This document shows, in pieces, positions 1 through 37,017 of a stretch of 37,017 nt of DNA (position 1 is its first letter; the number at the start of each line of letters is the position of its first letter). Both the position numbers and the translations under genes were made by a program. The DNA comes from a virus: IMG/VR virus record IMGVR_UViG_3300048687_000120, positions 1 to 37,017 of that record. One strand, given 5' to 3'. The notes beneath the pieces were generated by a model, which saw only the letters and a list, made by a program, of their open reading frames with translations, did not search any database and was not told the origin of the DNA.

Positions 1-127
1 CCAGGGCCATGGCCAGGGGCGCGTTGTCGATGTGGGAGAGAGCCTGCTCGGTGACCGCGTCGTAGAACTGACCGCAGGCCGCGCCGACTTCCCGCACCTT
101 GGGCTGGACCACCGTGATGCCGAGCCG
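1..127. repeat. Terminal direct repeat, copy 1 (exact 127-bp identity with 36891..37017); circular-closure overlap
   Basis: Bases 1-127 read identically to 36891-37017. The repeat lies inside the terL reading frame. Confidence 0.95.
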
Positions 128-3858: not shown

Positions 3859-4053
3859 TCAGGCGGCCTGTTGGAGACTGCGGCGGGGCTTGGGGGCCTG
3901 CTTGGCGGCGTGCAGGTGGCGCAGGTCGTACAGCGGGTGGCGGTCGGTGCCGCCGGCGGGGGAGATGAGTCCTCGGCGGCGCCAGTCGCGGAGGGTGGAC
4001 GGCTTGACCCCGGCGGCGACGGCGGCGAGGTCGGAGGGAAGCAGTCTGGCCAT
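3859..4053 (-). CDS. MerR/excisionase-family HTH DNA-binding protein (Xis candidate)
   Basis: The 64-aa C-terminal part of track ORF 3859..4203: MARLLPSDLAAVAAGVKPSTLRDWRRRGLISPAGG…. No SD; it sits 6 nt after a -10-like hexamer (leaderless). It is in the int/endoVII strand block. Confidence 0.6.
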   Translation of the reverse strand: MARLLPSDLAAVAAGVKPSTLRDWRRRGLISPAGGTDRHPLYDLRHLHAAKQAPKPRRSLQQAA

Positions 4054-4059
4054 GCGATC

Positions 4060-4088
4060 AGTGTGATCGGAATTCGCCCGAGTGTTCC
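4060..4088 (-). promoter_or_regulatory. Candidate promoter PA (-35 GGAACA, 17-nt spacer, -10 CACACT), member of a 3-copy motif family
   Basis: Minus strand reads GGGGAGCGGGGGGAACAC-N-CACACTGATCGC-ATG. The 18-mer GTGTTCCCCCCGCTCCCC (4082-4099) is repeated exactly at 10104-10121. Confidence 0.45.
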
Positions 4089-4166
4089 CCCCGCTCCCCT
4101 CCTGTCGCCGTGCGCTGGGTCGTTGCCCGCCCGCCGATCTTCTTACGAACCTTCGGGCGGTGGCGG

Positions 4167-4709
4167 TCACAGGCCGATGCCGTCGGTGACGGCGTCCTCC
4201 CACATGCCGCCTGCACTCTCCGCCATGGACCGGGCTTCCCGCCCGGTGATGGGGTGGACGTACCGAATGGTGACGCCAAGGATCATGGCGGGCGGCCGCA
4301 GCCGGTACTTCACGTACAGGCCGGCGGCGCCGTACAGGCCTTCACGCGTATTGCAGCCGACGCAGAGGTAGCCGCGGACCAGGCCCGTCTCGTGTTCGTG
4401 GTCCTCGACCTGTCCCTCGTTCAGGGCGCCGCAGATGGCGCACAAGCCGTGATGCCAGGCGAGCAGCCGCTGCCAGTCCTCCCCTTCAGGGGCGGGCCAG
4501 GACCAGGACCAGCAGGAGGGGTCGGCATCGAGGACGCGGCAGCGGGCTTCCTCGCGTTCCGCGACGTAGGCGGCCAGTGCCGCCGTCTCGGATTCTGTCA
4601 GGTGCGGACGGCATGCCCTCGGGTCAGGGAGCGCCGTGACACCGGTCCAGATAATGGGGTTCCCGCGGCAGGGCAGTCCCCGCTTTGTCAGGCGCGTGCA
4701 CGTGCTCAC
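4167..4709 (-). CDS. Recombination endonuclease VII family protein
   Basis: …HHGLCAICGALNEGQVEDHEHETGLVRGYLCVGCNTREG… matches the Endo VII CxxC…DH(D/E)H.TG.VRG.LC..CN signature. The GTG start overlaps the int stop (GTGA). Confidence 0.8.
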   Translation of the reverse strand: MSTCTRLTKRGLPCRGNPIIWTGVTALPDPRACRPHLTESETAALAAYVAEREEARCRVLDADPSCWSWSWPAPEGEDWQRLLAWHHGLCAICGALNEGQVEDHEHETGLVRGYLCVGCNTREGLYGAAGLYVKYRLRPPAMILGVTIRYVHPITGREARSMAESAGGMWEDAVTDGIGL

Positions 4710-5842
4710 TCGGTGCCTCTCTCAGCCGGTTCGGTGACGCGGAGCATCGACAGTGCGGCAGCGCGCCGCCCGGAGTCGGTCCGCTTGCCCGCGCGGCGCA
4801 GGCCGACCTTGCGGTACAGCTCCACCATGGCGTCGCTGTGCCAGTCGTCTCCGGTGGCATCGCGGATCTCCGCGGCGCTGAGCCCGAGGGCGCCGAGGTC
4901 GGTGGGGACGCCGGCGCGCAGTCCGTGGGCGGTGACGTTCTCGGCGACGTCGACGTCGGCCTCCACGGCGCGGGCCTTGACGATGTTGTTGACGGCTTGC
5001 CGGGTGAGTCCCTGGCCGGTCTTGGAGCTGACGGGACCGAGGTTGCCCCACATGTCGACGTTGCGCAGCAGCGGCAGGCGAGGGTCCGCCTGCCCGCGTT
5101 CGGCGAGTGCGTCCAGCCAGGCCCGCAGGTCGGCGAGGAAGTCGGGGTCGTCGACCTCGTACTCCTTGCCCTCGGACTCCTTGTCGTTCTTGGAGACTCG
5201 CTTGGTAAAAACGACGAGGGCGGCGGAGACCCACTGGATGTCCCCCAGCAGGAACGCGGCCAGTTCGGAGGCGCGGCCGCGGGTGAAGTAGCCGATGCCC
5301 AGCAGTACGCGGTCGCGGAGGCCGACCAGGGAATCGGTGGGGCAGACGTCCCGCATGGCGCGGAGCCGCTCGAGGTCGACCGGCGCGGAGGACCGCTTGC
5401 CCTTGCCCGCGGCGGCCCACGCATAGCGGTGGTCCTGGTAGATCTTCAGCGCGGCCGCCACGTCGGGGGTGCCCTCGAGCCCGGCGCGGGCGTTCATGTG
5501 GCGCACGGCGGTGATGGCCAGGCGCAGCGTTCCGGGCGGGGCTTCCTTGCGGCGCAGGTGCGAGATGTACGAGGCGAGGTTCTTGGACGTGGTGGCCGGG
5601 CCCGGTGTGCGGCCGTTGGCGGCGCACCAGCGGGCGAACGCCTTCCACTGGTCCTCGTACGTCTGGCGGGTGTTCTCGCGGCCGCTGTTGGCCAGGTCCT
5701 CGGCGGCCTCGTCGGTGAGGGTGTCGTTGACGTCGACCACCTCGGGGACCGCGGGCAGGTGCCCGGAGGGGTCGGGCACGATCTCGGCGTCGATAACGGG
5801 GACGATCTCAGAACCGGTCACGGCCCCAGGGTACCGTAGCAC
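4706..5842 (-). CDS. int: Tyrosine integrase / site-specific recombinase
   Basis: 378 aa. Contains …GLRDRVLLGIGYFTRGRASELAAF… (catalytic-domain Arg region) and …VTAHGLRAGVPTDLGALGLS…AMVELYRK (HxxR … Y). The start is GTG 5842 or GTG 5821. Confidence 0.85.
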   Translation of the reverse strand: MLRYPGAVTGSEIVPVIDAEIVPDPSGHLPAVPEVVDVNDTLTDEAAEDLANSGRENTRQTYEDQWKAFARWCAANGRTPGPATTSKNLASYISHLRRKEAPPGTLRLAITAVRHMNARAGLEGTPDVAAALKIYQDHRYAWAAAGKGKRSSAPVDLERLRAMRDVCPTDSLVGLRDRVLLGIGYFTRGRASELAAFLLGDIQWVSAALVVFTKRVSKNDKESEGKEYEVDDPDFLADLRAWLDALAERGQADPRLPLLRNVDMWGNLGPVSSKTGQGLTRQAVNNIVKARAVEADVDVAENVTAHGLRAGVPTDLGALGLSAAEIRDATGDDWHSDAMVELYRKVGLRRAGKRTDSGRRAAALSMLRVTEPAERGTE

Positions 5843-5843
5843 T

Positions 5844-5865
5844 TTCCATAAGTGGAGTTATGGAA
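5844..5865. promoter_or_regulatory. AT-rich perfect inverted repeat abutting the int start (operator or attP-arm candidate)
   Basis: TTCCATAA (5844-5851) - GTGGAG - TTATGGAA (5858-5865), in an otherwise GC-rich genome. Confidence 0.35.
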
Positions 5866-6039
5866 TGTGGTAAGCCCATACAGCCTCTCGGGGCGGGCGG
5901 AGCCGGGGATCGGCGCCGATCACTGCTGGTGGTTTGGGGGTCGGGGAACAAGCCGGGAGACTGCTCACGGTTACTGGGCCGCGGGGCGTTGTGCTGCCGG
6001 GGCGGCAGGAGGACGCTGGCCCCGACGAGAGGGGCGCCC

Positions 6040-6216
6040 ATGGGCTGGGTGGATTCGCAGTACATTCGCGTCCTCCAGGACGACCCGCGGTACGGGCGAC
6101 TGCTCAGCCTCACCCGGCGGCTGCTGGAGGTACGCATGCCCACCTGCACCAACGCGGGATGTCAGGGCGGGACGATCACCGTGAAGGACGCCGACGGAAG
6201 GGCCGGCGGCCGGTAG
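6040..6216 (+). CDS. Hypothetical small protein
   Basis: The last 58 codons of track ORF 5860..6216 (MGWVDSQYIRVLQDDPRYGRLLSLTRRLLEV…CTNAGCQGG…). A purine-rich stretch (GAGAGGGG) lies upstream and a hairpin follows. Confidence 0.45.
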   Translation: MGWVDSQYIRVLQDDPRYGRLLSLTRRLLEVRMPTCTNAGCQGGTITVKDADGRAGGR

Positions 6217-6225
6217 ACACCGCAA

Positions 6226-6252
6226 CGCCTCCGCCCTCGATCGGGCGGGGCG
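6226..6252. terminator. Bidirectional hairpin between convergent genes
   Basis: CCGCCC (6231-6236) TCGATC GGGCGG (6243-6248), extendable with one bulge. It lies between the 6216 (+) stop and the 6266 (-) stop. Confidence 0.5.
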
Positions 6253-6265
6253 CGTTCGTGTCCGG

Positions 6266-6688
6266 CTACGGGCGCCACTCCTCGCGGTAGCCGGGCCGGT
6301 CCGCGTACACGGCGGCGAGGGCGGCGAGGATGGGTGAGTCGTCAGTCTGTGGATCCCAGCCCCCCATCATGCGGCGGCGCTCGGCGGCGTACCGCTTGTG
6401 CTGCTCAATGATCTGCCGCTTGGCGTCGATCTCGCGCAGCACCCGGGCCGGATCCCACCGTTCGATGTGCCGGCCCACCCCGTCGTCATCGGCGTTGTAC
6501 GGGCTCACGTTCACCACGCCATCGTCCAGGTAGTCCACGATGACGTACTGCTCGTAACGGGCCTGGGGTGGGCGGGCAGTCCATACGTCCGACTGGTCAT
6601 CCCAGCAGGCCGCGCGCGCAATCCGCTCGTCCTCGTCGATCTGCTCGCCGAGCCACTGCACCAGGTCCATGCCCTGAGTCTGGCGCAC
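6266..6688 (-). CDS. DUF6221-like protein (actinobacterial/phage family ending …PGYREEWRP)
   Basis: 140 aa: …ARVLREIDAKRQIIEQHKR…LAALAAVYADRPGYREEWRP. The family is assigned from memory of this C-terminal signature. Confidence 0.6.
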   Translation of the reverse strand: MRQTQGMDLVQWLGEQIDEDERIARAACWDDQSDVWTARPPQARYEQYVIVDYLDDGVVNVSPYNADDDGVGRHIERWDPARVLREIDAKRQIIEQHKRYAAERRRMMGGWDPQTDDSPILAALAAVYADRPGYREEWRP

Positions 6689-6712
6689 CCGGCCGCCGTC
6701 GTTTCCCCCGGT

Positions 6713-6940
6713 TCAGGGGCGCCAGTCCTCGTGGTAGCCGGGCCGGTTGCGGTAGGCGAGGGCGAGCACGCGGTCGATGTCGTCGTCGTGGCGGGCGAAC
6801 AGCCGGCGCCGGGCGTCGGTCTCGCGCAGCAGTGCGGCCACCGGGCCGTCGTCCGGGGCGGCCTGGGCGCGGGCGTCGTCCGCGGCGAGCTGCCGGTCCA
6901 GCCAGCCGCGCAGTCCAGGGGTGTGGTCGTCGGCATCCAT
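6713..6940 (-). CDS. Short DUF6221-like paralogue
   Basis: 75 aa from ATG 6940 (SD GGAAGGGGG): MDADDHTPGLRGWLDRQL…LLRETDARRRLFARH…LALAYRNRPGYHEDWRP. It has the same C-terminal signature as the neighbour. Confidence 0.6.
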   Translation of the reverse strand: MDADDHTPGLRGWLDRQLAADDARAQAAPDDGPVAALLRETDARRRLFARHDDDIDRVLALAYRNRPGYHEDWRP

Positions 6941-7065
6941 CGGCTGCCCCCTTCCGCTTGAACCCGTCAACTCTGCCAGTCGACCGCGGGTGATCGCAGG
7001 GTGGATAGCACACGGGTGCCGGGCGCGGATCGGCCCGGGTGCCGTCCGGCGCCGGGAGCCGGGAG

Positions 7066-7074
7066 CTAGGTTCT
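7066..7074 (+). promoter_or_regulatory. Third copy of the switch-region operator half-site CTAGGTTCT, 6 nt upstream of the parA ATG
   Basis: The exact 9-mer also occurs at 14494-14502, and as its reverse complement at 14469-14477. Confidence 0.45.
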
Positions 7075-7079
7075 CGACC

Positions 7080-8009
7080 ATGACGCGAATCGACAGAACG
7101 CCGCTGCCCGCGTTGTCCGGGCCGCCGGGCGACCGGCTCGAGGTCGTCTCCGCCTTCGACGAGGAGATCCCCTACCAGGCGTGGCGCGCGGAGCTGTACG
7201 TGCCGCCGACGTTCCGCCCGGGCCAGGTGGCCATCACCTATGTGGTGGTGAACCAGAAGGGCGGCGCGGGCAAGACGATCACCACCGTCGAACTGGCGGC
7301 GGCGTGGGCGGCACGGGGCCGGCGGGTGCGGGTCATCGACGCCGACCACCAGGAGGCGGCGCTGTCGATGTGGCTGCTGCCGCAGTACCCGGAAGGTGCG
7401 CCGCGGCACTCGCTGCGGTCGGTGTTCTTCGACGAGGCGAGCCTGGCCGAGGCCACCTATCCGACCCGGTTCGCCGGGATCGACATCGTGCCGTCCGGGA
7501 TGGACCTGCAGCGGGTGGAGTACGAGCGGCCGATCGGCGCCGAGTCCGCGCTGGCGCAGGCCCTGGCCGCGGAGGAGGCGGACGCGGGCGGCCGCGCCCC
7601 CTACGACGTGACGCTGATCGATGCGGCGCCGTCGCTGGGCCTGGTCACGGTGGCCGCGCTGACCGCGGCCCGCAAGGCGCTGGTGCCGGTGAAGGTGGGC
7701 GGCCTGGACCTGAAGGCGATGGCGTCGCTGCACAAGACGATCCGCAGCGTGCAGCGCAAGACCAACCCGAAGCTCGGGGTGGACGCGGTGTTCCTGACCG
7801 CGTGGGACAAGAGCGACTTTGCCCGGCAGCTGGCGGCCCAGGTGAGCCAGGACTACCCGGAGGCGGTCGTGGTGCCGGTGCGGCGCAGTATCCGGGCGGC
7901 CGAGGCGCCGCTGTCGGAGGAGCCGGTGCGCCTGTACGCGCCGAAGTCGACGACGGCGTCCGACTACGACCAGGCGGCCGACGTGCTGCTCGAGGGGGTG
8001 GCCCGGTGA
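7080..8009 (+). CDS. parA: ParA/Soj-family partition ATPase
   Basis: From ATG 7080: …VAITYVVVNQKGGAGKTITTVELAAAWAARGRRVRVIDADHQ… (deviant Walker A KGGxGK[ST]). The track ORF is extended upstream to 6777. Confidence 0.85.
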   Translation: MTRIDRTPLPALSGPPGDRLEVVSAFDEEIPYQAWRAELYVPPTFRPGQVAITYVVVNQKGGAGKTITTVELAAAWAARGRRVRVIDADHQEAALSMWLLPQYPEGAPRHSLRSVFFDEASLAEATYPTRFAGIDIVPSGMDLQRVEYERPIGAESALAQALAAEEADAGGRAPYDVTLIDAAPSLGLVTVAALTAARKALVPVKVGGLDLKAMASLHKTIRSVQRKTNPKLGVDAVFLTAWDKSDFARQLAAQVSQDYPEAVVVPVRRSIRAAEAPLSEEPVRLYAPKSTTASDYDQAADVLLEGVAR

Positions 8010-8950
8010 GCGCGCGGCGCCTGCTGACACTGCCGTCCACGGTCAGCGAGGAGAGCGAGGAGAGTGAGGAGTCCGGCGGCCAGCTCGGGCTGCCCGGGCA
8101 GGCCACGGGGGTGGTGGCCGAGTTGACCGGGGCCGATGTCTCCTCGGTGGTGTCGGTGCAGCAGCTGCCCGCCCCCTACGACGTGGCCGCCGAGGTTGCG
8201 GGGCCGCTCAGTGCGAAGGAGCGCGGCGACCTCGAGCTGTGCGAGCAGGCGCTGCACGGCTTCCGCAAGGCGCTGATCGTGGCGGGCAAGGCGCTGGAGG
8301 TCATCAAGCGGGGGCGGCTGTACCGGGAGACGCACGCGACGTTCGAGGACTACGTGATGGAGGCGTGGGGGTTCAAGCGGGCGCACGCCTACCGGCTGAT
8401 CGACGGGTGGCCGGTGGCCGCCGCGATGTCTCCAATTGGAGACATCAACGAGGCGCAGGCCCGCACGCTGCTGCCGGCCTGGAGGGGGCACGGGCCGGAT
8501 GCCACGGCCGTGCTGTACCGGGAGGTGCGCGAGCTCAGCGGCGGGAAGGTGACCGCGGCCGCGCTCGAGCAGGCGGTGCAGGTACTGCCCAAGCGGCTCG
8601 CCGCACCGGAGCAGGCGGCCGACGTGCTGCGGGTGGCCGCCGCCGAGGGCCGGGTGCCGCTGATCGTGCCGCCGCGTGTCGCGGCGCGGGCCGTCGTCGA
8701 CGAGCCGGCCGGGGACGAGGCCACGGACCCCGGGGTGGAGGCCATGGCGGTGCTCGAGGCCGCCCTGGCGCAGCAGCGGCAGATCTACGACCGGCTCGCC
8801 GGGGTGGTGCCCGCCGCGCTCGCCTTCGATCCGGGGCGGGCCGAGGTGTTGCTGGCCGAGCTGCGCCAGTACGCGAAGCGCACCGGCTATCGGGCGAAGG
8901 GTCGGAGCAAGGGCGGGGGAACACCGGAGGAGGATCAGGGGGAGGATTGA
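8006..8950 (+). CDS. ParB-like / HTH centromere-binding partner candidate
   Basis: GTG 8006 overlaps the parA stop (GTGA). Contains …IKRGRLYRETHATFEDYVMEAWGFKRAHAYRLIDGW…, which resembles ParB/KorB-type HTH regions. No clear ParB N-terminal GERRxR box seen. Confidence 0.5.
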   Translation: MSARRLLTLPSTVSEESEESEESGGQLGLPGQATGVVAELTGADVSSVVSVQQLPAPYDVAAEVAGPLSAKERGDLELCEQALHGFRKALIVAGKALEVIKRGRLYRETHATFEDYVMEAWGFKRAHAYRLIDGWPVAAAMSPIGDINEAQARTLLPAWRGHGPDATAVLYREVRELSGGKVTAAALEQAVQVLPKRLAAPEQAADVLRVAAAEGRVPLIVPPRVAARAVVDEPAGDEATDPGVEAMAVLEAALAQQRQIYDRLAGVVPAALAFDPGRAEVLLAELRQYAKRTGYRAKGRSKGGGTPEEDQGED

Positions 8951-10213: not shown

Positions 10214-11572
10214 TCACGTCCATGCCGCTTCCTTCGCACCCTGCTGCGCCGGGACGGGTGCGGGCGGGGCCTGGAATCCCTCGGGGCCCGCCGCCTGCCA
10301 CGGCCAGCTGGCGCCCCGCATGAACCCCTCAGGCCAGTCGCGTTCGCTGCGGCTGCCACGCCACGGGTGCCAGCGGACCAGGCCCTCCTCCTCGGCGAAC
10401 TGGATCTCCTTGTTGGAGACCGGGGCGAGACCGAATCCGAACTCGGGCCAGCGCATCCACAGTGAGGAGCCGATGGGGCGATAGTCACGCTGCCGCTCGC
10501 CCCCGGCACGGTGTGGGGCGTGTGCCTCGATCAGCATGGCCGCGCCGTTGGAGGCGACCCTGACGGACTCCAGGGCGGACATGAGGGTGCGGGCGACTTC
10601 TTCGTCATTGGGGTTGCCGCCGGCGAGCTTGTACAGCGGACCGATGGCGATCATGTCGGGGGTGTTGCGCTCGACCAGGCGCAGCAGCCGGGCCCGGTCG
10701 CCGGGGTTGTTCAGGTCCAGGCCGCCCTCGATGACCTCAACTTTGAAGTTGTTGAGCAGGTCGCCCACGTCGCCGTCCAGTTCCTGGCGGGCTGCCTGCT
10801 GCATGCTGCGCAGCCACGGCCGGACCTGCGATCTGCTGTTCTCGACGTCGACCAGGAGCACGCGCTTGGGCACGATGCGGGCTTTCTTCCAGGGGTGCAG
10901 GCCTGCTGCGGTGCGCATGAGCAGCTGCCGGTTGAACAGGGACTTGCCGCCGCCCTCGGGTGCGGTGACGATGAGCCGGTCCCACCGGGCGAGGACGCCG
11001 GGGATGACCCACTCGGGTTCGTCGTCGGCCTCGTCCAGGAACTCGCCCAGGGTCGGCGTCGGAGTGTCGGTGGCTGCCATGCCCCGGTCGCGGACCGCCC
11101 GCAGCCGTTCGACGCCATCCTCCAGCACCTCGGTGACGTCGCCCTGGCGCGCGAACAGGGCCTGCACGGTGCGGGTCGACTCCTCGATCCCACCGCGAGC
11201 GGCCGCGTGCTCGGCGACGATCTCGGCATAGTGCTCGGACTGGCCGGGAGTGGACACGCTCCGCACCAGTTCGTGCAGATAGCTAGGGCCGCCCATCCGG
11301 TAGATGTCGCCGCTCTTGGTGAGCTCGGCCGCGACCGTGATCGGGTCCGCCTGCTCCTGCCCGCGGGCATGCACCGTCAGGATCGCGTCGTACACGGTCT
11401 GATGGGCGGGCTTGTAGAACTCGGTGCCGCTGGTCAGGATGCGGGACACCTCGGCGACGGCGTCTCTGGACAGCAGCATGCCGCCGAGGATGGCCTGCTC
11501 GGCGTCCAGGTCCTGCGGGGGCAGCCGCTCGAACGGCATCGGGGGTGCGGTGTCGTCGAAGTCTGGTTCCAT
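10214..11572 (-). CDS. Replicative helicase-like protein: DnaB N-terminal domain fused to a RecA-like (AAA_25/RepA-type) ATPase
   Basis: From ATG 11572 (SD GGAGA): …PPQDLDAEQAILGGMLLSRDAV…YKPAHQTVYDAI… (DnaB-N), then …LIVTAPEGGGKSLFNRQL… (Walker A) and …VLLVDVEN… (Walker B-like). Confidence 0.75.
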   Translation of the reverse strand: MEPDFDDTAPPMPFERLPPQDLDAEQAILGGMLLSRDAVAEVSRILTSGTEFYKPAHQTVYDAILTVHARGQEQADPITVAAELTKSGDIYRMGGPSYLHELVRSVSTPGQSEHYAEIVAEHAAARGGIEESTRTVQALFARQGDVTEVLEDGVERLRAVRDRGMAATDTPTPTLGEFLDEADDEPEWVIPGVLARWDRLIVTAPEGGGKSLFNRQLLMRTAAGLHPWKKARIVPKRVLLVDVENSRSQVRPWLRSMQQAARQELDGDVGDLLNNFKVEVIEGGLDLNNPGDRARLLRLVERNTPDMIAIGPLYKLAGGNPNDEEVARTLMSALESVRVASNGAAMLIEAHAPHRAGGERQRDYRPIGSSLWMRWPEFGFGLAPVSNKEIQFAEEEGLVRWHPWRGSRSERDWPEGFMRGASWPWQAAGPEGFQAPPAPVPAQQGAKEAAWT

Positions 11573-11658
11573 GGTGGGGGATCTCCTGTTCGGATCACAA
11601 GCTGGCAGGGGGTTCGGCGGGCCGGCCCCGGCATGGGCCGGCCCGCACACATGTCCGG

Positions 11659-12669
11659 CTACAGACCGGAGCCGATGAACCTGCGTCGCGCGGGTGCGGC
11701 CACGGTCGCCTGCACCGCGGAGTACAGGCGCAGATCACGCACCCAGTTGGGCAGGCACTTGACCCAGGAGTCGGCGCCGCCGGTGTTCTTGAAGATGTCT
11801 GCCTCGAGCAGCTGCTGCTGGGCGTCGTCCATGTCGGCGATCTGCGGCCATCCCTGATCGCGCATCGCGCGCAGCAGCAACGGGGCGCACTTGCGGGCGG
11901 TAGCTGCCCCTGCCTGCCAGGTGGTCATCTGCTGCAGGAAGACCTCGGCGTTCCGGGTTTGCTCCGGAGAGAATCCCTCCCCCTCCGCTCGTTGCTGCGC
12001 CGTGCTCTTGGCGTGCGTGAGGGGGTTGGGGGAGGAGGAATCCTCCTCCTCCGGGGGGTGTGGGGGGGGAGCGTCCGATCCGGACAGGGTGTCCCGATCG
12101 GTCTGACCTGCGGCGTTGGGTGATTTCCGATCGGGACAGGGTGTCCCGATCGGCGCCGATCCGGACAGGGTGTCCCGATCGGCCTGACCTGCGCATCCGG
12201 ACAGGGTGTCCCGATCGGAAGCGGCGTTGGCCTCCCCATCGGGACAGGGTGTCCCGATCGGCCTGACCTGCAGTGCTTCCTGGACGCCGCCGCGGACATA
12301 GGCGGCGTTGTTGGCGGGGTTCCGGTAAACACGGAACACCCACTCGGGGCGCTTCGTCTCCGGGTTGTACTCCCGCTTGTGTTCCACGTGGCCGGCCTTC
12401 TTCAGCCGTCGCATGATCTTGCGGAGGTCGCGTTCGCTGAGCGTCCAGCCGCCCGTCCGGAACTCGTCGAGCAGGCCGAGGATGCTGGACGGCTGCTTCG
12501 GGTCACGGAGCAGCAGGCGGATGAGGACGCCGTAGTCGTCGAAGTCGAGGTCCGGTGAGAGCGCGAGGGCGTACGGAATGACGACCTCCTCCGGCGGCTC
12601 CCACATCCGGATGACCCGGGTTGCGGCGAAGCCAGGACCAAAGGTGTCCTGCGTGGCGTCTTGCGCCAT
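11659..12669 (-). CDS. Replication initiator candidate (winged-helix-like N-domain; iteron-containing CDS)
   Basis: From ATG 12669 (SD AGGAA): …DDYGVLIRLLLRDPKQPSSILGLLDEFRTGGWTLSERDLRKIMRRLKKAGHVEHKR…. It lies immediately upstream of the helicase gene and contains the 5x20-bp repeat array. Confidence 0.55.
   Translation of the reverse strand: MAQDATQDTFGPGFAATRVIRMWEPPEEVVIPYALALSPDLDFDDYGVLIRLLLRDPKQPSSILGLLDEFRTGGWTLSERDLRKIMRRLKKAGHVEHKREYNPETKRPEWVFRVYRNPANNAAYVRGGVQEALQVRPIGTPCPDGEANAASDRDTLSGCAGQADRDTLSGSAPIGTPCPDRKSPNAAGQTDRDTLSGSDAPPPHPPEEEDSSSPNPLTHAKSTAQQRAEGEGFSPEQTRNAEVFLQQMTTWQAGAATARKCAPLLLRAMRDQGWPQIADMDDAQQQLLEADIFKNTGGADSWVKCLPNWVRDLRLYSAVQATVAAPARRRFIGSGL
12082..12261. repeat. 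Five exact 20-bp iterons GGACAGGGTGTCCCGATCGG (candidate origin of replication)
   Basis: Copies start at 12082, 12134, 12163, 12199 and 12242. Each is the core of a 23-25 bp near-palindrome (C/G)ATC(C/G)GGACA-GGG-TGTCCCGATCG. Confidence 0.7.
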
Positions 12670-12860
12670 GTGCTTGTTCCTATCGGGTAGGAGAAGCACC
12701 GAGATCCATGTCATCCCCGGCCTGCCTTCCCGCCCTTCCCGGTGGCGGGTACAGTCCTTGATGGGACCTACGTGGAACCCAGACTTCTCATTTGTTTCGT
12801 TTCCTGCGAGACGAGAGATGTGAACCGGCGGCTTCCCGGCCGACCAGTTCGGACGCATTC

Positions 12861-12910: not shown

Positions 12911-13126
12911 CTACGCGCTGACGGGCGCCTTGATGCGCTTCGCCAGCTCGCCCTCCCAGTCCCCGCGGTGGATTCGCGTGGCCAGGTCGAACTGCATGGT
13001 GCGCACCTTCAGGCGCCCGTCACGCAGCATGGTCTTCAGGGTGCGCGGGTCGACGCCGATGACGGCCGCAGCCTCGGTCACCTTGATCCACTCGGGCTTG
13101 ATGTGGCTGGGTGTGCTGTACGGCAT
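12911..13126 (-). CDS. Small HTH DNA-binding protein (excisionase/MerR-like HTH_17 type; Cro-like position)
   Basis: 71 aa from ATG 13126 (SD GGGAGGGG): MPYSTPSHIKPEWIKVTEAAAVIGVDPRTLKTMLRDGRLKV…. Confidence 0.65.
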   Translation of the reverse strand: MPYSTPSHIKPEWIKVTEAAAVIGVDPRTLKTMLRDGRLKVRTMQFDLATRIHRGDWEGELAKRIKAPVSA

Positions 13127-13160
13127 GGCCCCTCCCGGGACGCGTTGAGGTCGTAACCAG

Positions 13161-13189
13161 ACACTCGCACAGATTTCACAAGACGTTCC
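13161..13189 (-). promoter_or_regulatory. Candidate promoter PC (-35 GGAACG, 17-nt spacer, -10 GAGTGT)
   Basis: Minus strand GAGGTGAGGGGGGAACGTC…GAGTGT. It has the same G-run + GGAAC + 17 nt + NANNNT architecture as PA and PB. Confidence 0.4.
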
Positions 13190-13193
13190 CCCC

Positions 13194-13643
13194 TCACCTC
13201 TGGCCATGATCTGCAGCCACGAGGCGAGGACTCTCGCCGCCCATTTCGTGTACGGCGCGCTGCACCGTTTCGACTGGATCGCCGAACGATGTCAGGTCGA
13301 ACCACTCGCCCCGTACGCGGTAGGCCGCGAACCGTCGGTGCAGTTCTCTCTCGTACTTCCCGGTCGTGGACCAAAGAAGAGAGAGCGTCATCGGCTGACC
13401 AGTTTGGAGGGCCGCCAGGCGTCTCTGTGGGTCCAGAGTGGTGTGCCCGATCTTGACAAGGTGGGTGTGCTCCGCGCCGATCAGGTACGTCCTGGGGACT
13501 TCCTGCATTCGCTGCCACTTGCGTTCCAAGGCCGATGCCCGACCGGGGAGCAGCGGACGAAAGCGCTCGTTGTTCTTCCTAGGCGCCTCGACACCTCCGA
13601 CGATGAGGTAGCGGCCCGGATCCTCATAGTCGTACTTCCGCAT
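13194..13643 (-). CDS. T5orf172 / GIY-YIG-superfamily (MUG113-like) domain protein
   Basis: 149 aa from ATG 13643: …TYLIGAEHTHLVKIGHTTLDPQRRLAALQTGQPMTLSLLWSTTGKYERELHRRFAAYRVRGEWFDL…. Confidence 0.65.
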   Translation of the reverse strand: MRKYDYEDPGRYLIVGGVEAPRKNNERFRPLLPGRASALERKWQRMQEVPRTYLIGAEHTHLVKIGHTTLDPQRRLAALQTGQPMTLSLLWSTTGKYERELHRRFAAYRVRGEWFDLTSFGDPVETVQRAVHEMGGESPRLVAADHGQR

Positions 13644-13647
13644 CCCG

Positions 13648-14451
13648 CTACTCCTTCGGCCGAACAGGCTGGACGGGCCACTCAGCATCGCCTCCGCGGA
13701 CCAAGTCGGAGACGAGCTCCACCCGGTCGCTCGGAATCACCTTCATCGTGACCTCGATAGGCGCGTCGGTCCGTGCCGAGTAGCCGACCATCGTCACCTC
13801 GAAGACAGGCAGCGCCGTCGCGATGGACAGCAGGTCCGCCTCCTCCTTGCTCGGCATGCGAGCACGGATGGTCTCGCGCCAGGAGATGGGCCCGTGGCCG
13901 GCATCTTCCAGGCGGTCGAGATATCCGCCAGGGCCGGTGTCCGGCTCGGCTACCTGGGGGGCGTCGGCAACGGCGGCGGGACTGATCCATGTGTCGACCA
14001 GCTGGAAGGCGGGCTCTCCCTTGGGGGCCATGACGCGACGCCGACGCAACACGGAAGCCCCCGCCTCCACGCCGAACGTGTCGGCGACGAGTGCGGGCAC
14101 GGGCTCGAGCGATCGGAACGGCTTGCCGAGCGGACCCCACGTCTCGGACGGATCGTGGGTGGCAGGGAAGACGTAGCCGTAGTGCGGGTTGCGGGTGACG
14201 GTCTGGCCACGGCGGATACGCCGGCGCCGGACGCGGTCCTGCAAGACGATGCCGCGGCGGTTCACCGAGCGGATGAGCCCCTCGGCCGCGACCATGTTCA
14301 CGGCCGAACGGATCGTTTCCCGCGCTACGTCGTACTGGTCGGTCAGGTCCGCGATGGTTGCGAGGACTTCGCCGGGCTGCTTCTCCCCGTTGAGAACTCG
14401 GGCTCGCAGATCGTCCGCGACTTCTCGCGCGGTTCGCTTCTTGGTGGTCAT
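13648..14451 (-). CDS. GntR/HutC-family transcriptional regulator (wHTH + UTRA-like C-domain); repressor candidate
   Basis: 267 aa: …VLATIADLTDQYDVARETIRSAVNMVAAEGLIRSVNRRGIVL… followed by a ~180-aa effector-type domain. It faces a divergent promoter/operator region. Confidence 0.8.
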   Translation of the reverse strand: MTTKKRTAREVADDLRARVLNGEKQPGEVLATIADLTDQYDVARETIRSAVNMVAAEGLIRSVNRRGIVLQDRVRRRRIRRGQTVTRNPHYGYVFPATHDPSETWGPLGKPFRSLEPVPALVADTFGVEAGASVLRRRRVMAPKGEPAFQLVDTWISPAAVADAPQVAEPDTGPGGYLDRLEDAGHGPISWRETIRARMPSKEEADLLSIATALPVFEVTMVGYSARTDAPIEVTMKVIPSDRVELVSDLVRGGDAEWPVQPVRPKE

Positions 14452-14633: not shown

Positions 14634-15125
14634 ATGCGCAACCGTAGCGCAGCTATCGAAACCACGACCGAACGGGACCGCCTCGGGAACCCGTTCAACG
14701 ACTTCCTCGCCTCCTACGTCGACACGCCCCAGGGCCGCGTGACCGGCCGGCTGAGCGTGGACGACATCGTCTCCATCCGCGAGACCACCCTCTCCGAGGC
14801 GCCGAACCGCACCTACGTGTCGGTCCTCGGCTACGTCGAGTCGGTCCGCACCTTCATGAGCGTCAAGTGGCCCGCCCGGCACCCGTTCGGCGTCTTCCGC
14901 CTGGACTCCGGAACCGGTGCCGCCGCGATCGTCACCCTGACCTCGGTCAAGTACGAGAAGTACTGGGGCGACCTCGTCATGGGCCGCCGCGTCCGCGTCT
15001 GCGGAGCCGTCACCCGTTCCGAGCAGGGCGCCCCCGTGACGCTCCGCCTGGACCGGCTGACCGTCCTCCGCACCCTGCTCGTCACCCCCGCCCAGGACAC
15101 CCACCGTCTGGCCGGAGCCCGGTGA
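14634..15125 (+). CDS. Hypothetical protein, possibly an OB-fold nucleic-acid-binding protein
   Basis: 163 aa; AGGAG SD 8 nt upstream. A beta-rich segment …VRVCGAVTRSEQGAPVTLRLDRLTVL… resembles OB-fold anticodon-binding-type domains (weak call). Confidence 0.4.
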   Translation: MRNRSAAIETTTERDRLGNPFNDFLASYVDTPQGRVTGRLSVDDIVSIRETTLSEAPNRTYVSVLGYVESVRTFMSVKWPARHPFGVFRLDSGTGAAAIVTLTSVKYEKYWGDLVMGRRVRVCGAVTRSEQGAPVTLRLDRLTVLRTLLVTPAQDTHRLAGAR

Positions 15126-18092: not shown

Positions 18093-19124
18093 GTGAAGGT
18101 ACCCGGAGAGGACACCACCGCTCCGAACGACGTCGACCAGATCCTCGGCGACGCCTTCCGGCAGTGGTGGAAGCCGGTCACGCGCTTCATCTGCACACGC
18201 GTCGACAACCGCCACCGCATGCACGCCGAGGACCTCGCCTCCCGCACCTTCGAGGAGTACTGGCGCTTCCTCGAATCGGGAAAGCGACCGCAGGGCCCGG
18301 TATGGGGACTGCTGTGCACGATGGCACGCCAAGCCATCTCGGAGTTCTACCAGGCGTTCAGCAACCGCCTCGAGTCCTCCTGCGACTTCACCGACCCGGC
18401 CAACCGCAGCATCGCGGCCGGCCACGCCTACGCCCCCGCCTCCCCGACCCTGGCCGAACTGAGCGCCGAACTGGACGCGGCCACCGCCGAGATGGAGACC
18501 ACGTCGGCTCTCTGGCGGAAGCTGCACGCCGAGTGCACCAAGGTCTACTCCCGACTGCAGCAGTCCCAGACCGCCCGCACGACGGACCGCCTGACCGCTG
18601 CGCTACGGCAGGCCGACCAGGACGCCGCGGCGCAGCTCGTCGTCTTCCGCGCCGCCTGCCACCGTGTCGGCACGCTGCGCGCCGAGATCGAGGCCGCCGC
18701 AGGTCCGCACTACCGGTCGGTGGTCGTCCAGCCCGAGGTGCCGAACCAGCGCAGCCGGCCGCACACGGTCGTCAGTGACCCGACCCTCACGCACTGCCGC
18801 ACCGGGCACCGCATGACCCTGCACAACACCCAGTTCCACGCAGACGGCACCCGTGCCTGCCGCGCCTGCAAGCACGCTCAGCACCGGCAGCGCGAGGCCG
18901 CATCCGACACCCCGAAGAACGCGCCCACCGCCCTGAAGTGCACGCCCGCTCTGATTGCCCGCGCCCGCCGGCTGTTCGCCGCCCCGGCCGCCGCTAACAG
19001 GACCCTCGCCGACCTCGGACAGGAGCTCGGCGTCAGCGTGCGCGTCCTGCGCAAGCACATCCCCGACCTCACAGAGCTGCGCCACCAGGCGCGCACCGCC
19101 GCCTTGGCAGGTACTGCCCGATGA
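18093..19124 (+). CDS. Sigma-70/ECF-like transcription factor candidate with an internal Cys/His cluster and a C-terminal HTH
   Basis: GTG 18093 (SD AAGGAA). …HAEDLASRTFEEYWRFLESGKRPQGPVWGLLCTMARQAISEFYQ… resembles sigma region 2. …RTLADLGQELGVSVRVLRKHI… resembles a region-4 HTH. …HCRTGHRM…TRACRACKH… lies between them. Confidence 0.45.
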   Translation: MKVPGEDTTAPNDVDQILGDAFRQWWKPVTRFICTRVDNRHRMHAEDLASRTFEEYWRFLESGKRPQGPVWGLLCTMARQAISEFYQAFSNRLESSCDFTDPANRSIAAGHAYAPASPTLAELSAELDAATAEMETTSALWRKLHAECTKVYSRLQQSQTARTTDRLTAALRQADQDAAAQLVVFRAACHRVGTLRAEIEAAAGPHYRSVVVQPEVPNQRSRPHTVVSDPTLTHCRTGHRMTLHNTQFHADGTRACRACKHAQHRQREAASDTPKNAPTALKCTPALIARARRLFAAPAAANRTLADLGQELGVSVRVLRKHIPDLTELRHQARTAALAGTAR

Positions 19125-20605
19125 CCACCACCCCCGAGAGGACCACCCCCGTGCGCACCACCCCCGCCTCCGCACCGGCAGCCCCCGCCACCCGCGAAGA
19201 CCACGACCAGGCCCTCCGCGACATCGCCCAGCTCGAGTCCATCGAGCAGGGCCTCACCCGTGTCCTCGTCATCCTCGGCATCGGCGGGCTGATCTTCACC
19301 GCCGTCAACGTCACCCTGTTCGCCATCGAACACGACACGCACCGGGCCATCGCCTGGATGCTCGACCCGCTCGTCTCCCTCTCCCTGCTCGCCGCGCTGT
19401 TCATCGACGGACGCCTCGCCGCCCACGGCTACAAGCCGGGCGGCTGGCCGTTCGTCCTGCGCTGGTTCGCCGGCCTCACCACCTGGCTGATGAACTGCTG
19501 GGGCGCCCTGTACCCGGGCGGGAAGTTCACCGGCTGGCCCGACCGCGCCGACCCGGCCGGCCTGGTGCTGCACTCCGCGATCCCGTTCCTCGTCATCGTC
19601 CTGGCCGAGGCGGGCGCCGGCTGGCGCCGGTTCACGCTGCGGAAGAAGCCCGAGTACCAGGCCGTCGTCGACGACTGGAAGAACCGTGAGGCCGAGCGCC
19701 GCCGCATCGCCACGGAGAAGCGGGAGAAGGAGGACCAGCGGCTCCGCGACGAGGCGGAAGCCGAGCGGAAGCGCGCCGCGGATCTCGAAGCGGAGGAGCG
19801 GAAGCTGACCGCGGAACTGGCGGCGGAGGAGAAGCGCGCCGCGATCGAGACGGCAAAAGCGCGGGACCTCGCCGACGCAGAAACGCGGCGGATCCAAGCC
19901 GAGGTCGAGGCAAAAGCGCGGACCGCGGAACTGGACCGCGAAACCGCGGAAGCGCAGGAACGCGCCGCCGCAGAAGCGCGGGAGCAGCAGGCCCGCATCG
20001 ATCGCGAGAACGCGGCGCACGCCGCCCGCCTGGAGCAGGATCGCATCGCAGCAGAAGCCGAGGCGGAAGCCGTAAAGGTCAAGGCCGCGGACGAGGCGCG
20101 GGCCGCCGAGGAGGTCCGCCTCAAGCGCCGCGAAACCGCGGAAGCGCGGCGCGCTTCCACCGCGCTTCCGGCCGCGGAACCCGCCGCGCTTCCGGCGAAG
20201 GCGACCGCGCTTTCGACCGCGATTCCGTCCGAGGCGACCGCGATTCCGACCGCGGAACCGACCGCGCCTTCGCATCCCGGCACCGCGCTTCTGTCCGACC
20301 AGGCGACCGCGATTCCGCGGAAGCTGACCGCGGTTCCGCACCGCGATTCCACCGAAGCGGACGACGTACGCGGCGCCGAGGCCAAGCGCCGGCAGATCGA
20401 GGAGGCCAACCTCGAGGCCGCGATCCTGCTCACCCTCGACCGGGCACCGACCCGCAAGGACTTCGCCGCCGGCTACGGACGCGGCGAGACGTGGGGACGG
20501 GACCGGTACGCCGACGCACAGCGTCTGCTCGCCGAGGACGAGGCGTTCGCCGCCAAGGTGCAGGCCGAGGCCGAGCAGCGCACCGCCGCCCTGGTCACCG
20601 CCTGA
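19121..20605 (+). CDS. DUF2637 / SpdB2-like polytopic membrane protein with a long charged coiled-coil and a repeat-rich C-terminal half
   Basis: About 4 TM helices at the N-terminus (…VLVILGIGGLIFTAVNVTLFAI…, …LVSLSLLAALFI…, …FAGLTTWLMNCWGAL…, …LHSAIPFLVIVLAEA…). These are followed by an E/R/A-rich region and TA(I/L/V)P repeats. Confidence 0.6.
   Translation: MTTTPERTTPVRTTPASAPAAPATREDHDQALRDIAQLESIEQGLTRVLVILGIGGLIFTAVNVTLFAIEHDTHRAIAWMLDPLVSLSLLAALFIDGRLAAHGYKPGGWPFVLRWFAGLTTWLMNCWGALYPGGKFTGWPDRADPAGLVLHSAIPFLVIVLAEAGAGWRRFTLRKKPEYQAVVDDWKNREAERRRIATEKREKEDQRLRDEAEAERKRAADLEAEERKLTAELAAEEKRAAIETAKARDLADAETRRIQAEVEAKARTAELDRETAEAQERAAAEAREQQARIDRENAAHAARLEQDRIAAEAEAEAVKVKAADEARAAEEVRLKRRETAEARRASTALPAAEPAALPAKATALSTAIPSEATAIPTAEPTAPSHPGTALLSDQATAIPRKLTAVPHRDSTEADDVRGAEAKRRQIEEANLEAAILLTLDRAPTRKDFAAGYGRGETWGRDRYADAQRLLAEDEAFAAKVQAEAEQRTAALVTA
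20135..20350. repeat. Dense array (at least 12 copies, both orientations) of the motif ACCGCG-NN-T(T/C)C(C), including 3 exact GACCGCGATTCCG
   Basis: Copies include 20216-20226, 20237-20247, 20249-20259, 20261-20271, 20282-20292, 20306-20316, 20327-20337 and 20340-20350. Spacings are 12-24 bp, most often 21. Related GACCGCGGAACTGG occurs twice near 19807 and 19921. Confidence 0.7.
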
Positions 20606-20616
20606 CCGTTCCGACA

Positions 20617-20648
20617 ACGCCCCTGCCGGGTTCGACCGGTGGGGGCGT
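20617..20648 (+). terminator. Terminator hairpin after the DUF2637 gene (13-bp stem including two G-U pairs, loop GTTCGA)
   Basis: ACGCCCCTGCCGG (20617-20629) / CCGGTGGGGGCGT (20636-20648), 12 nt after the stop. Confidence 0.6.
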
Positions 20649-20950
20649 CGGCGTGTCCGGGCTACGCACGCGCGGTAGCCGTCCGGCGGGCCGGGACCGC
20701 CTACTTACTACTTACCGACCGGGGGAGAAAGCCCCCGATGTCCGATTCTCGGGCCGGATCGGCAGGAAGTAGCGCTCTTCCGGGCCGGTCGGTAAGAAGT
20801 CAGTAACTCGGCGACGTGACGCGGGGTGACGAATCGTCATCATCACATTGCCGGGAGAAGGTGATGATGCGGGCCCCAACGCGCGCGCGCGACGCGCGTG
20901 CGCGAGGGAAGCACAACCGGTGACGCAGCGTCAAGGAATTCCGGGCAGCG

Positions 20951-20992
20951 AAAAGGCCCCCGCGGCACCCGTGTTGGGCGCCGCGGGGGCCT
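20951..20992 (-). terminator. Canonical rho-independent terminator for leftward (late) transcripts
   Basis: 13-bp perfect stem AGGCCCCCGCGGC (20954-20966) / GCCGCGGGGGCCT (20980-20992). On the minus strand it is followed by TTTT (complement of AAAA 20951-20954). Confidence 0.65.
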
Positions 20993-21232
20993 CGTCCGTT
21001 CTTCCTCCCACTTCCTCCCCCCAGGCAGGAGAACCGCCGTTCGCCCTTGTGACGTGGCCGGACGTGATGGCGACCGTGTCAGGGGGAGGGAGGAGGAGAA
21101 GCCACCACCGCCTCACGGCGGGGCGTGGCGGCGCCTCTGGCGGGCTTTCAGCCCATCGGCGGCGCGGAGTCCGCGCGCGCCTCTGCTGTCCCGGCAGACG
21201 GGCGCTGAGTGCGACTTGGCCAATCCGTGGCA

Positions 21233-21883
21233 TCACGGGTACTGGCGGCGCTGAGGATCCAACGCGGCCGCAGACGGGGACGGCTGCCCGTCGTCGTCCG
21301 GTGCCGGTGCACCATCCCGGCGGCAGACGAGCGCGTCGGGGTCGCCGGGCGGGGTCTGCAGGCTGTACCCGTCCGGGCAGGTCTGCCCGTCACGGCCATC
21401 GGCCCCGTCTTTTCCGGCGGCGCCGGCGGGGCCTGGCTCGCCCTGCGGTCCGGCCGGCCCTGGCTCGCCCTGCGCGCCTGGAGCGCCCGGTGTTCCGGCG
21501 GCGCCACTCGGGCCGGTCTTGCCCACGCCATCGGTTCCCTTCGCGCCGTTGTCGCCGTCGCTGCCGTTCTTGCCCGGTGATCCGGACGGTCCCGGGCTGC
21601 CCGGGTTTCCCGGTTCACCCTGCGCGCCGCGCGGACCCTGTATCGAACGGCCAGGGGTGCCGCGGCTCCCGGGCGGGCCAGCCACGGGTGTGCCGCCCAT
21701 CCGCTCGACCTGCCGGGCCAGCTGGTCACGCGCCTCGTTCGCCGTCCGCAGGTCGTCCGTCATCGCCTGCACCGTCAGCACGATCCAGGCGACGGCGATT
21801 CCCAGCGCGATGGCGCCGAACACCGCGAAGACGTCTCCGCGGCGCCAGCGCCGTTCCTCCGCCCGGATCTGGCCGCGCGTCAT
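21233..21883 (-). CDS. Membrane-anchored collagen-like (Gly-X-Y repeat) protein
   Basis: 216 aa from ATG 21883 (ATGA overlap with the upstream gene). N-terminal [23 protein letters not shown], a short coiled segment, about 30 G-X-Y triplets ([25 protein letters not shown]…[19 protein letters not shown]; nt ~21383-21679), and a Cys-containing C-terminal domain. Confidence 0.75.
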
Positions 21884-22176
21884 GACCCCGCCCCCTGGGT
21901 GAGCAGAATGATCACCGGCAGAAGGATCCCGACCAGCGGCACCACGACCGCACCGATCAGCCACCTCCTGGTCGCGACCAACTTCTCGGACTCCTTCTCC
22001 CGCAGGGTCTCCAGCGTGCTGACCCGCGCGGTTAGTGCCTCGTGCCGCAGGTCGTAGATCCGGGCGTCGACTTTCTCGTCGAGGCGGTGGCCGAGCTGCT
22101 GGATGTCGTCGCGGACATCGGCGAAGCGGTCTTCGAATCGGCGTACGACCTCGCCTAGCGTCGGCTCATCAGCCAC
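21880..22176 (-). CDS. Tail-anchored membrane protein with a coiled-coil N-domain (lysis-cassette position)
   Basis: 98 aa; GTG 22176 with AGGAG SD. …[41 protein letters not shown]. Confidence 0.55.
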
Positions 22177-36735: not shown

Positions 36736-37017
36736 TCACCAGACCGCGTTCATGATGTCGCCGGGATACTCGACCTCGGCGCCGAGTCCCCACTTGGCCA
36801 GCGTCACGGCCACCAGGGGGGAGATATCGACACCGACGCCACGCCGGGCCCACGCCCAGGCGTCGCCCAACGGACGCTTCTGTGCGCCCGCCAGGGCCAT
36901 GGCCAGGGGCGCGTTGTCGATGTGGGAGAGAGCCTGCTCGGTGACCGCGTCGTAGAACTGACCGCAGGCCGCGCCGACTTCCCGCACCTTGGGCTGGACC
37001 ACCGTGATGCCGAGCCG
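36736..37017 (-). CDS. terL: Terminase large subunit, C-terminal part (same gene as 1..1378 through the circular junction; about 510 aa in total)
   Basis: Track ORF 36736..37002 (…VQPKVREVGAACGQFYDAVTEQALSHIDNAPLAMALAG…) is in the same frame (coordinate mod 3) as the ORF leaving base 1. Residues encoded by 1-127 are the same as those encoded by 36891-37017. Confidence 0.9.
   Translation of the reverse strand, partial: RLGITVVQPKVREVGAACGQFYDAVTEQALSHIDNAPLAMALAGAQKRPLGDAWAWARRGVGVDISPLVAVTLAKWGLGAEVEYPGDIMNAVW
36891..37017. repeat. Terminal direct repeat, copy 2 (identical to 1..127)
   Basis: Same 127-nt string as the window start (ccagggccatggccaggggcgcgttgtcgatg...gtgatgccgagccg). Confidence 0.95.

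Follow-up and report, generated by a model that had tools for sequence, protein, structure and literature searches.

Is a phage genome that carries both a gene annotated as a tyrosine integrase and a pair of genes resembling ParA and ParB inherited as part of the host chromosome, as a plasmid, or as both? The locus that raises this question lies at 3859-8950 of the IMG/VR virus record IMGVR_UViG_3300048687_000120, a stretch of 37,017 nucleotides that was analysed over its whole length and is referred to here as the window. The original prediction had described a tyrosine recombinase with an Endonuclease VII gene and a helix-turn-helix (HTH) gene at 3859-5842, followed by a coupled ParA and partner at 7080-8950, and had read the two groups as dual maintenance; as a fallback, one of the two systems was taken to be a relic or to have been repurposed. 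All of these features were confirmed at the positions given, the three genes of the first group by Pfam, and they do not represent a chance pattern. Our answer is that the window is probably a phage-plasmid of the pFP4 kind, maintained in the manner of P1 as a low-copy plasmid prophage with partition and multimer resolution, and not by dual maintenance. A recombinase next to a partition locus is no anomaly, because phage-plasmids and low-copy plasmids normally carry both, as P1, SCP2 and pFP4 do.

A closed circular phage genome

The first 127 nucleotides of the window (1-127) are identical to the last 127 (36891-37017), and because the ends overlap in this way, the record corresponds to a closed circle of 36,890 bp with no host flank. 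Once the ends are joined, the TerL reading frame is whole again, the circle having been linearised inside the large terminase gene, and the length of the overlap suggests an assembler k-mer of 127. Two Logan contigs of run SRR26075316, from the same sample, match the window at 100% identity. The window has a G+C content of ~70%. Many of its open reading frames (ORFs) are spurious, and the real genes were told apart from them through codon-position G+C (GC3). These genes encode TerL, a portal, a protease, a major capsid protein, a tape measure and tail proteins, together with a GntR/UTRA regulator, HNH endonucleases and a DnaB-like helicase. No host genes, no second integrase and no FtsK-type transfer gene were found in the window; neither were tRNA genes or tRNA-like sequence, which leaves no basis for an attP of the tRNA type. 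No match was found when 25 kb was compared by Megablast with 50,697 phage records. Searches of the phage records by tblastn with the recombinase and with the partner of ParA (ParT, see below) gave weak matches at best, the best full-length ones being in Streptomyces phage Gilgamesh, and we therefore recognise no close relative in INPHARED. We read the window as a whole circular genome, that of a temperate siphovirus of Streptomyces.

The ParA-ParT-parS partition locus

The first gene of the pair, parA (7080-8009, plus strand), encodes a Walker-type partition ATPase (AAA_31, E 5e-30; CbiA, E 1e-16; PHROG 164 ParA, E 6e-42). As had been predicted, it has a deviant Walker A motif, KGGAGKT, and its stop codon shares a GTGA overlap with the start of the partner ORF, an arrangement of translational coupling. 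The encoded protein is 76% identical to the ParA of SCP2 over 308 amino acids (aa). The partner ORF (8006-8950, plus strand) has 314 codons, and its GC3 of 0.93 shows that it is coding; the same value is found for parA, and both ORFs are intact. Its product has no match in Pfam, PHROG or PDB sequence searches, and no ParB/CTPase Pfam domain was found in it. The original prediction was to fall if HMM searches showed this ORF to be unrelated to centromere-binding proteins, and from the blank searches alone it might have appeared to do so. However, tblastn against plasmids returned 150 records, mostly from Streptomyces, and these include SCP2.04c of the S. coelicolor plasmid SCP2, a proven centromere binder, to which the partner is 56% identical over its full length (E 1e-108).

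SCP2.04c is the ParT protein of the ParATS system, which has been characterised experimentally (Sukhoverkov et al., PNAS 2025; PMC12260392). ParT is ParB-like and has no CTPase domain; an 18-bp inverted repeat within its own gene is where it loads, and it diffuses on DNA in a CTP-independent manner and activates ParA (PMC12260392). This repeat, the SCP2 parS, was mapped inside parT by ChIP-seq and BLI (PMC12260392). The identical 18-mer, TGTCTCCAATTGGAGACA, occurs in the window at 8427-8444, at codons homologous to those that hold it in SCP2 parT. It is embedded in a perfect 20-bp palindrome at 8426-8445, inside the window's own parT, and is the sole match in the window at three or fewer mismatches (chance expectation 0.01). 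When L003, L014/L024, L020, L025 and L027 (the L numbers denote the loci compared) were set against the window, two parS alleles emerged, TGTCTCCAATTGGAGACA and TGTCCCCAATTGGGGACA; the substitutions that distinguish them are paired and synonymous, so that the palindrome and the ParT peptide SPIGD are both retained.

Further palindromes deserve mention beside parS. Those of L029 and L030 are more diverged. SCP2 itself (L002) has a second parS-like palindrome, TGTCCCCAATTGGGGACG, at 14884-14901, with three mismatches to parS and located inside SCP2.15c, a putative DNA-binding protein gene; we found no mention of it in the available portions of the ParT paper (PMC12260392).

The AF2 model of the window's ParT (pLDDT 80) comprises a disordered N-terminal peptide, a long and confidently predicted helix at residues 70-102 and a helical middle domain, after which come a linker of low confidence (214-240) and a helical domain at the C-terminus. 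This layout matches the ParT architecture as published (PMC12260392). Taken together, 7080-8950 is, by homology, a complete ParA-ParT-parS partition locus, and the ParA/ParB-like pair of the original prediction proves to be a genuine one, its partner being homologous to SCP2 ParT and its parS identical. The mechanism would then carry over from SCP2 by analogy, in that ParT would load and diffuse without CTP and would stimulate the ParA ATPase, and the replicon would be stabilised. The two systems share the order and overlap of parA and parT, the parS at the same codons and a ParT layout without a CTPase domain. They differ in their carriers, since SCP2 is a conjugative plasmid and the window is a 36.9-kb phage genome. 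No mention of a phage context for ParATS was found in the available portions of PMC12260392.

Could this locus be something other than a maintenance system? In an ordinary integrating prophage, the recombinase would be the integrase, and ParA and ParT would be a relic or would serve some other purpose, for instance to exclude superinfecting phages by incompatibility or to position replication or packaging. The generic annotation of the recombinase as an integrase would agree with this, ParA-like genes do occur in integrating actinophages, and the parS, being the same as in SCP2, could make the element incompatible with SCP2-like plasmids. We nevertheless regard such a prophage as most improbable. 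Both par ORFs are intact and translationally coupled with a GC3 of 0.93, parS is perfectly conserved, and its variants in relatives retain the palindrome through the paired synonymous changes. Moreover, all 120 of the 120 ParT homologue clusters listed are on contigs of at most ~105 kb, many of them 30-45 kb, and none is on a Mb-scale contig. The full replicon with iterons, described below, and the circular assembly without flanks argue in the same direction. The original prediction's fallback of a repurposed system comes close to the truth.

A Cre-like recombinase

The recombinase gene (4706-5842, minus strand) has a probable true start at 5821, taken from independent gene calls, which gives a protein of 371 aa. 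Its score against Pfam Phage_integrase is barely above the cut-off (29.9 vs 27.1 bits). A phmmer search of the PDB sequences gave significant matches to Cre and its engineered derivative Tre alone, over the full length and at E 2e-6, with XerD at E 0.3. The AF2 model (pLDDT 88) has a disordered segment of residues 1-40 and then the two Cre domains, with no N-terminal arm-binding domain. When the model was compared with the PDB by Foldseek, the first 33 matches were all Cre or Tre (E ~1e-14, best 2e-14; TM 0.74-0.77), against ~1e-6 for Xer and ~2e-5 for lambda Int, the latter weaker than Cre by about nine orders of magnitude. Residues R190, K218, R309, W334 and Y343 of the catalytic set R-K-H-R-W-Y are invariant, and H306 is present in at least 90% of 36-37 homologues; a Trp occupies the Cre position of the set. 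Judged by its sequence and its predicted fold, the recombinase is Cre-like, at 26% identity to MrpA of SCP2 and ~20% to Cre itself.

The phage-plasmid P1 combines ParAB with Cre/loxP, and dimer resolution is one of the roles of Cre. Both Cre of P1 and MrpA share with the window's enzyme the two-domain Cre fold, the R-K-H-R-W-Y set and a simple inverted-repeat site with an asymmetric spacer, and each of them accompanies a ParA-type partition locus on a low-copy replicon. The similarity extends to gene position for MrpA (SCP2.07c), which lies ~1 kb from parA-parT of SCP2; the window's recombinase is comparably placed beside its own parA-parT. MrpA is reported to resolve plasmid multimers (PMC3218068). 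For the window's recombinase, too, a role in the resolution of multimers is more probable than the insertion of the phage into a chromosome.

The core recombination site

Directly at the start of the recombinase gene, an AT-rich site stands out in this 70% GC genome. It is lox- or dif-like, with inverted arms of roughly 12-15 bp, and occupies 5837-5872, where the arms TAGCACTTTCCATAA and TTATGGAATGTGGTA surround an asymmetric 6-bp spacer, GTGGAG, at 5852-5857. The spacer of loxP is 8 bp, unlike the 6 bp of the window, which are as in dif/Xer sites, and the abutment of the site on the gene start is a further difference from Cre/loxP and from MrpA. One of the same-sample Logan contigs crosses the site uninterrupted and is 100% identical to it.

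The same site is found upstream of the recombinase homologue in every site-bearing locus (pFP4, L004-L015, L018-L021 and L032, with a variant in L033), at a distance of 0 to ~2.5 kb from the gene. Across these loci the arms co-vary symmetrically (cact/agtg, cacc/ggtg and cacg/cgtg), the spacer varies (GTGGAG, ATGGGG, TTGGGG and GGACAG), and the orientation of the spacer is fixed relative to the recombinase gene. Scanning 185,579 species-representative genomes for the full site gave two matches, each of them no more than ~2.5 kb upstream of a gene for a homologous recombinase, and no orphan attB-like site was found there with this strict two-arm pattern in one scan. The corresponding scan of IMG/VR gave eight matches, all beside a recombinase homologue and none an orphan; IMG/VR contigs of 79 and 88 kb hold one site each. 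No convincing arm-type direct repeats were found flanking the core site. In this, as in the missing arm-binding domain, the system differs from a lambda-type integrase.

Relatives of the phage

Within annotated collections, the closest recombinase is that of pFP4 (75% identity). This circular plasmid of Streptomyces (NC_017833; 40.9 kb) carries genes for phage structural proteins, for ParA and for FtsK-type transfer. PMC4170104 describes it as a plasmid-phage that is propagated in episomal form and gives rise to infective particles; its original description is that of Chen et al. 2012, cited in PMC4170104 and PMC6950372. Like the window, pFP4 is a circle of ~40 kb that joins siphovirus structural genes to plasmid functions and has the same core site upstream of its recombinase. 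Besides the recombinase, the two share a few early genes and regulators of the MerR-like, HTH and GntR types, and their tape measures match weakly. Their structural genes differ, and so do their replicons, which rely on Prim-Pol/DUF927 in pFP4 and on a DnaB-like helicase and iterons in the window. pFP4 has another type of ParA, whose partner is a protein of 85 aa and not ParT, and its FtsK/SpoIIIE transfer genes were not found in the window.

Recombinase homologues of at least 70% identity are on contigs of 22-90 kb. The recombinase, ParA and ParT occur together, within 1-4 kb, on a 38.5-kb contig of S. mirabilis, a 35.9-kb contig of Streptomyces sp. 111WW2 and IMG/VR contigs of 37.8 and 20.8 kb. 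The recombinase cassette is also present on a non-phage circular plasmid of 101 kb. Another carrier is L032 from S. janthinus (NZ_CP134214.1), deposited as a linear 90-kb plasmid, which has the recombinase at 75% identity and the site, along with genes for a phage-like lysin, a collagen-like fibre and Rad52; it may be a larger phage-plasmid.

The presence of the cassette on plasmids that are not phages bears on a different role for the recombinase in the phage cycle, such as the cyclisation of infecting DNA or the resolution of cointegrates with other plasmids, with partition still maintaining the plasmid. Cre has both roles in P1, which the resemblance of the two enzymes recalls, and mosaic exchange with plasmids is evident. 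We consider such a role very unlikely: the cassette recurs where there is no phage cycle to serve, and the HNH endonuclease gene that adjoins the terminase genes would suggest cos-type packaging, which needs no recombinase for cyclisation.

The replicon and its proposed low-copy maintenance

Further along the minus strand are the genes of a replicon. The DnaB-like replicative helicase (10214-11650; Pfam DnaB N-terminal domain, E 3e-27; AAA_25, E 2e-20) is followed by a 399-aa ORF (11659-12858) that has no Pfam or PHROG match and contains five iterons, copies of CCGATCSGGACAGGGTGTCCCGATCGG, at 12075-12272 with spacings of 29-52 bp. Presumably it encodes the replication initiator and includes the origin. 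The initiator, iterons and helicase that had been predicted for the element are thus borne out, the initiator as a putative one. A GntR/UTRA regulator is encoded at 13648-14451, with 61% identity to its pFP4 counterpart and 31% to SCP2.35; it probably acts as the prophage repressor. It is a regulator of the KorA/KorSA type known from Streptomyces plasmids.

A complete set of virion and packaging genes therefore shares one replicon with a helicase, iterons and ParATS, the combination by which a phage-plasmid is recognised. In its stability functions (ParA, ParT, parS and a Cre-like recombinase) the genome looks like SCP2, with a kit of the same kind. From this combination, from the circular assembly and from the element-sized contigs that relatives occupy in isolate assemblies, a plasmid state in vivo would be expected, and its upkeep can be pictured as follows. 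The putative initiator gene with its five internal iterons and the helicase would form the replicon. ParT would load at the single 18-bp parS within its own gene and spread along the flanking DNA without CTP, and its N-terminal peptide would stimulate the ParA ATPase, so that sister copies would be moved apart along the hyphal nucleoids. Acting on the 30-36-bp site upstream of its own gene, the Cre-like recombinase would convert dimers and multimers to monomers and would thereby give partition separate units to work on.

Extrachromosomal cluster A mycobacteriophages are comparable temperate actinophages that are kept as plasmids by a partition locus, although theirs has a canonical ParB and parABS replaces the integration cassette, whereas the window has ParT and a tyrosine recombinase side by side (PMC7157519 for the mycobacteriophages).

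Integration, docking and the points that weigh against a plasmid prophage

What the plasmid reading has to contend with begins with the gene that the original prediction called Xis-like. This small gene of MerR-type HTH (3859-4203, minus strand; Pfam MerR_1, 24.7 bits; PHROG 2474 'MerR-like regulator', E 5e-10) has a shorter form, 3859-4053, in an independent gene call from L022 of the same sample. Between it and the recombinase is the gene for an Endonuclease VII domain protein (4167-4709, minus strand; Pfam Endonuclease_7, E 8e-12), which is co-transcribed with the recombinase and downstream of it; the arrangement of recombinase and Endonuclease VII is repeated in L020. The best matches of the MerR-type protein are regulators, and an excisionase PHROG was matched weakly (E 0.0016). 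It is conserved beside the recombinase in pFP4, L013 and L020.

Several observations speak against a purely plasmid-borne prophage. The MerR-type protein, two genes downstream of the recombinase and conserved with it, could be an excisionase. Recombinase homologues of 54-66% identity are on chromosome-scale contigs. In Streptomyces sp. SID8374 the homologue belongs to a prophage-like region; no par genes occur within 10 kb of it, and a tRNA-Arg gene is located 8 kb away, in the ±10 kb read. The homologue in NBC_01217 is a lone gene without a recognisable site. In two IMG/VR relatives that carry ParA-ParT, other tyrosine recombinases, unrelated to the window's protein at the BLAST level, are encoded between the MerR-like gene and parA (L026, 6413-7783, 456 aa; L027, 2118-3290, 390 aa). 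A circular assembly without flanks also fits virion or replicating DNA. The function of the recombinase is transferred from MrpA and Cre across a long distance in sequence. Lastly, Foldseek of the full ParT model against the PDB gave noise and recovered no ParB structure, so that the ParB-like nature of ParT rests on its published analysis. The exchange seen in L026 and L027 is compatible with an exchangeable integration cassette and with an exchangeable resolvase alike, and the slot between the MerR-like gene and parA appears to be a point of recombinase exchange. An idea that these two relatives uncouple 'Xis' from 'Int', with the MerR-like gene occurring without a recombinase, was dropped when Pfam showed the other tyrosine recombinases in the slot.

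Under dual maintenance, the recombinase would integrate the phage, using either a target in the chromosome or a lox-like copy resident on another replicon, and the replication genes and ParATS would also permit an episome. Cre-type enzymes are well known to recombine two identical sites intermolecularly, and the recombinase occurs together with a site of the GTGGAG spacer in the 5.3-Mb chromosomal contig of SID8374 (L004) and in a 335-kb contig (L018). The conserved MerR-like protein could then be a directionality factor, and the slot filled by different tyrosine recombinases in relatives would also agree with integration. We judge dual maintenance to be rather unlikely all the same. The model lacks an arm-binding domain and arm-type repeats were not seen around the core; the genome scan gave no orphan site and the window has no host junction; and close homologues, of at least 70% identity, are all on plasmid-sized contigs. 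The site in SID8374 is intact and phage lysis genes lie beyond it, which places it within the element rather than at a junction. The 79- and 88-kb IMG/VR contigs, with one site each, point the same way. Of the dual maintenance proposed originally, episomal persistence stands as the best-supported lifestyle, and the integration cassette is left unsupported by the Cre-like fold, the simple site and the distribution on plasmids.

The copies of the site with a GTGGAG spacer, found on large plasmids and in a chromosomal contig, allow for one more possibility, docking, by which the phage would form reversible cointegrates with any resident replicon that carries such a copy. We hold this to be quite unlikely. 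If true, it would provide a second, integrated mode of inheritance alongside the ParATS episome, and a route by which modules move between phages, plasmids and the chromosome.

Neighbouring genes

The interval between the core site and the partition locus contains three further genes. A small ORF at 6040-6216 (plus strand) has no family match; it is an independent gene call in L022, and the longer ORF at 5860-6216 has a GC3 of 0.82. It is followed by a gene for a DUF6221 protein (6266-6688, minus strand; Pfam DUF6221, E 4e-31) and by a second, divergent DUF6221 paralogue (6713-6940, minus strand), whose Pfam score of 24 bits is below the cut-off and which is supported by a 75-aa gene call from L023. 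A divergent intergenic region of 139 bp separates this paralogue from parA. The two Logan contigs meet at 6416-6442, with a 27-nt overlap, within the first DUF6221 paralogue, where the paralogues share an imperfect repeat of 25 nt (88% identity). Elsewhere, an HTH_17 gene is located at 12911-13207, between the putative initiator and the GntR/UTRA regulator. A 494-aa ORF without a Pfam match at 19121-20605 has internal tandem repeats of 12-45 bp at ~20160-20345, and downstream of it, from ~20600 to 21900, there is no clear codon-position GC signal.

Implications for Streptomyces phages and plasmids

ParATS, Cre-like recombinases and the plasmid-phages of Streptomyces are all of known kinds. Useful points are the occurrence of ParATS as a module of phage-plasmids and the definition of a new lox-like system with clear limits. 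Temperate phages, too, carry this partition system, which was described in 2025 on one conjugative plasmid, and it emerges as the recurrent partition module in a family of 30-45-kb Streptomyces phage-plasmids. The module is 76-80% identical in nucleotide sequence to its plasmid copies, which attests to recent exchange between the two kinds of element. Annotators of actinophages should take a 'tyrosine integrase' beside par genes for a resolvase in the first instance, and not as evidence of a dual lifestyle. The new family of Cre-like recombinases, with a clearly delimited minimal site and natural spacer variants, could supply orthogonal lox-like tools for high-GC actinomycetes. Since its parS is the same as in SCP2, the phage-plasmid is predicted to be incompatible in partition with plasmids of the SCP2 type.

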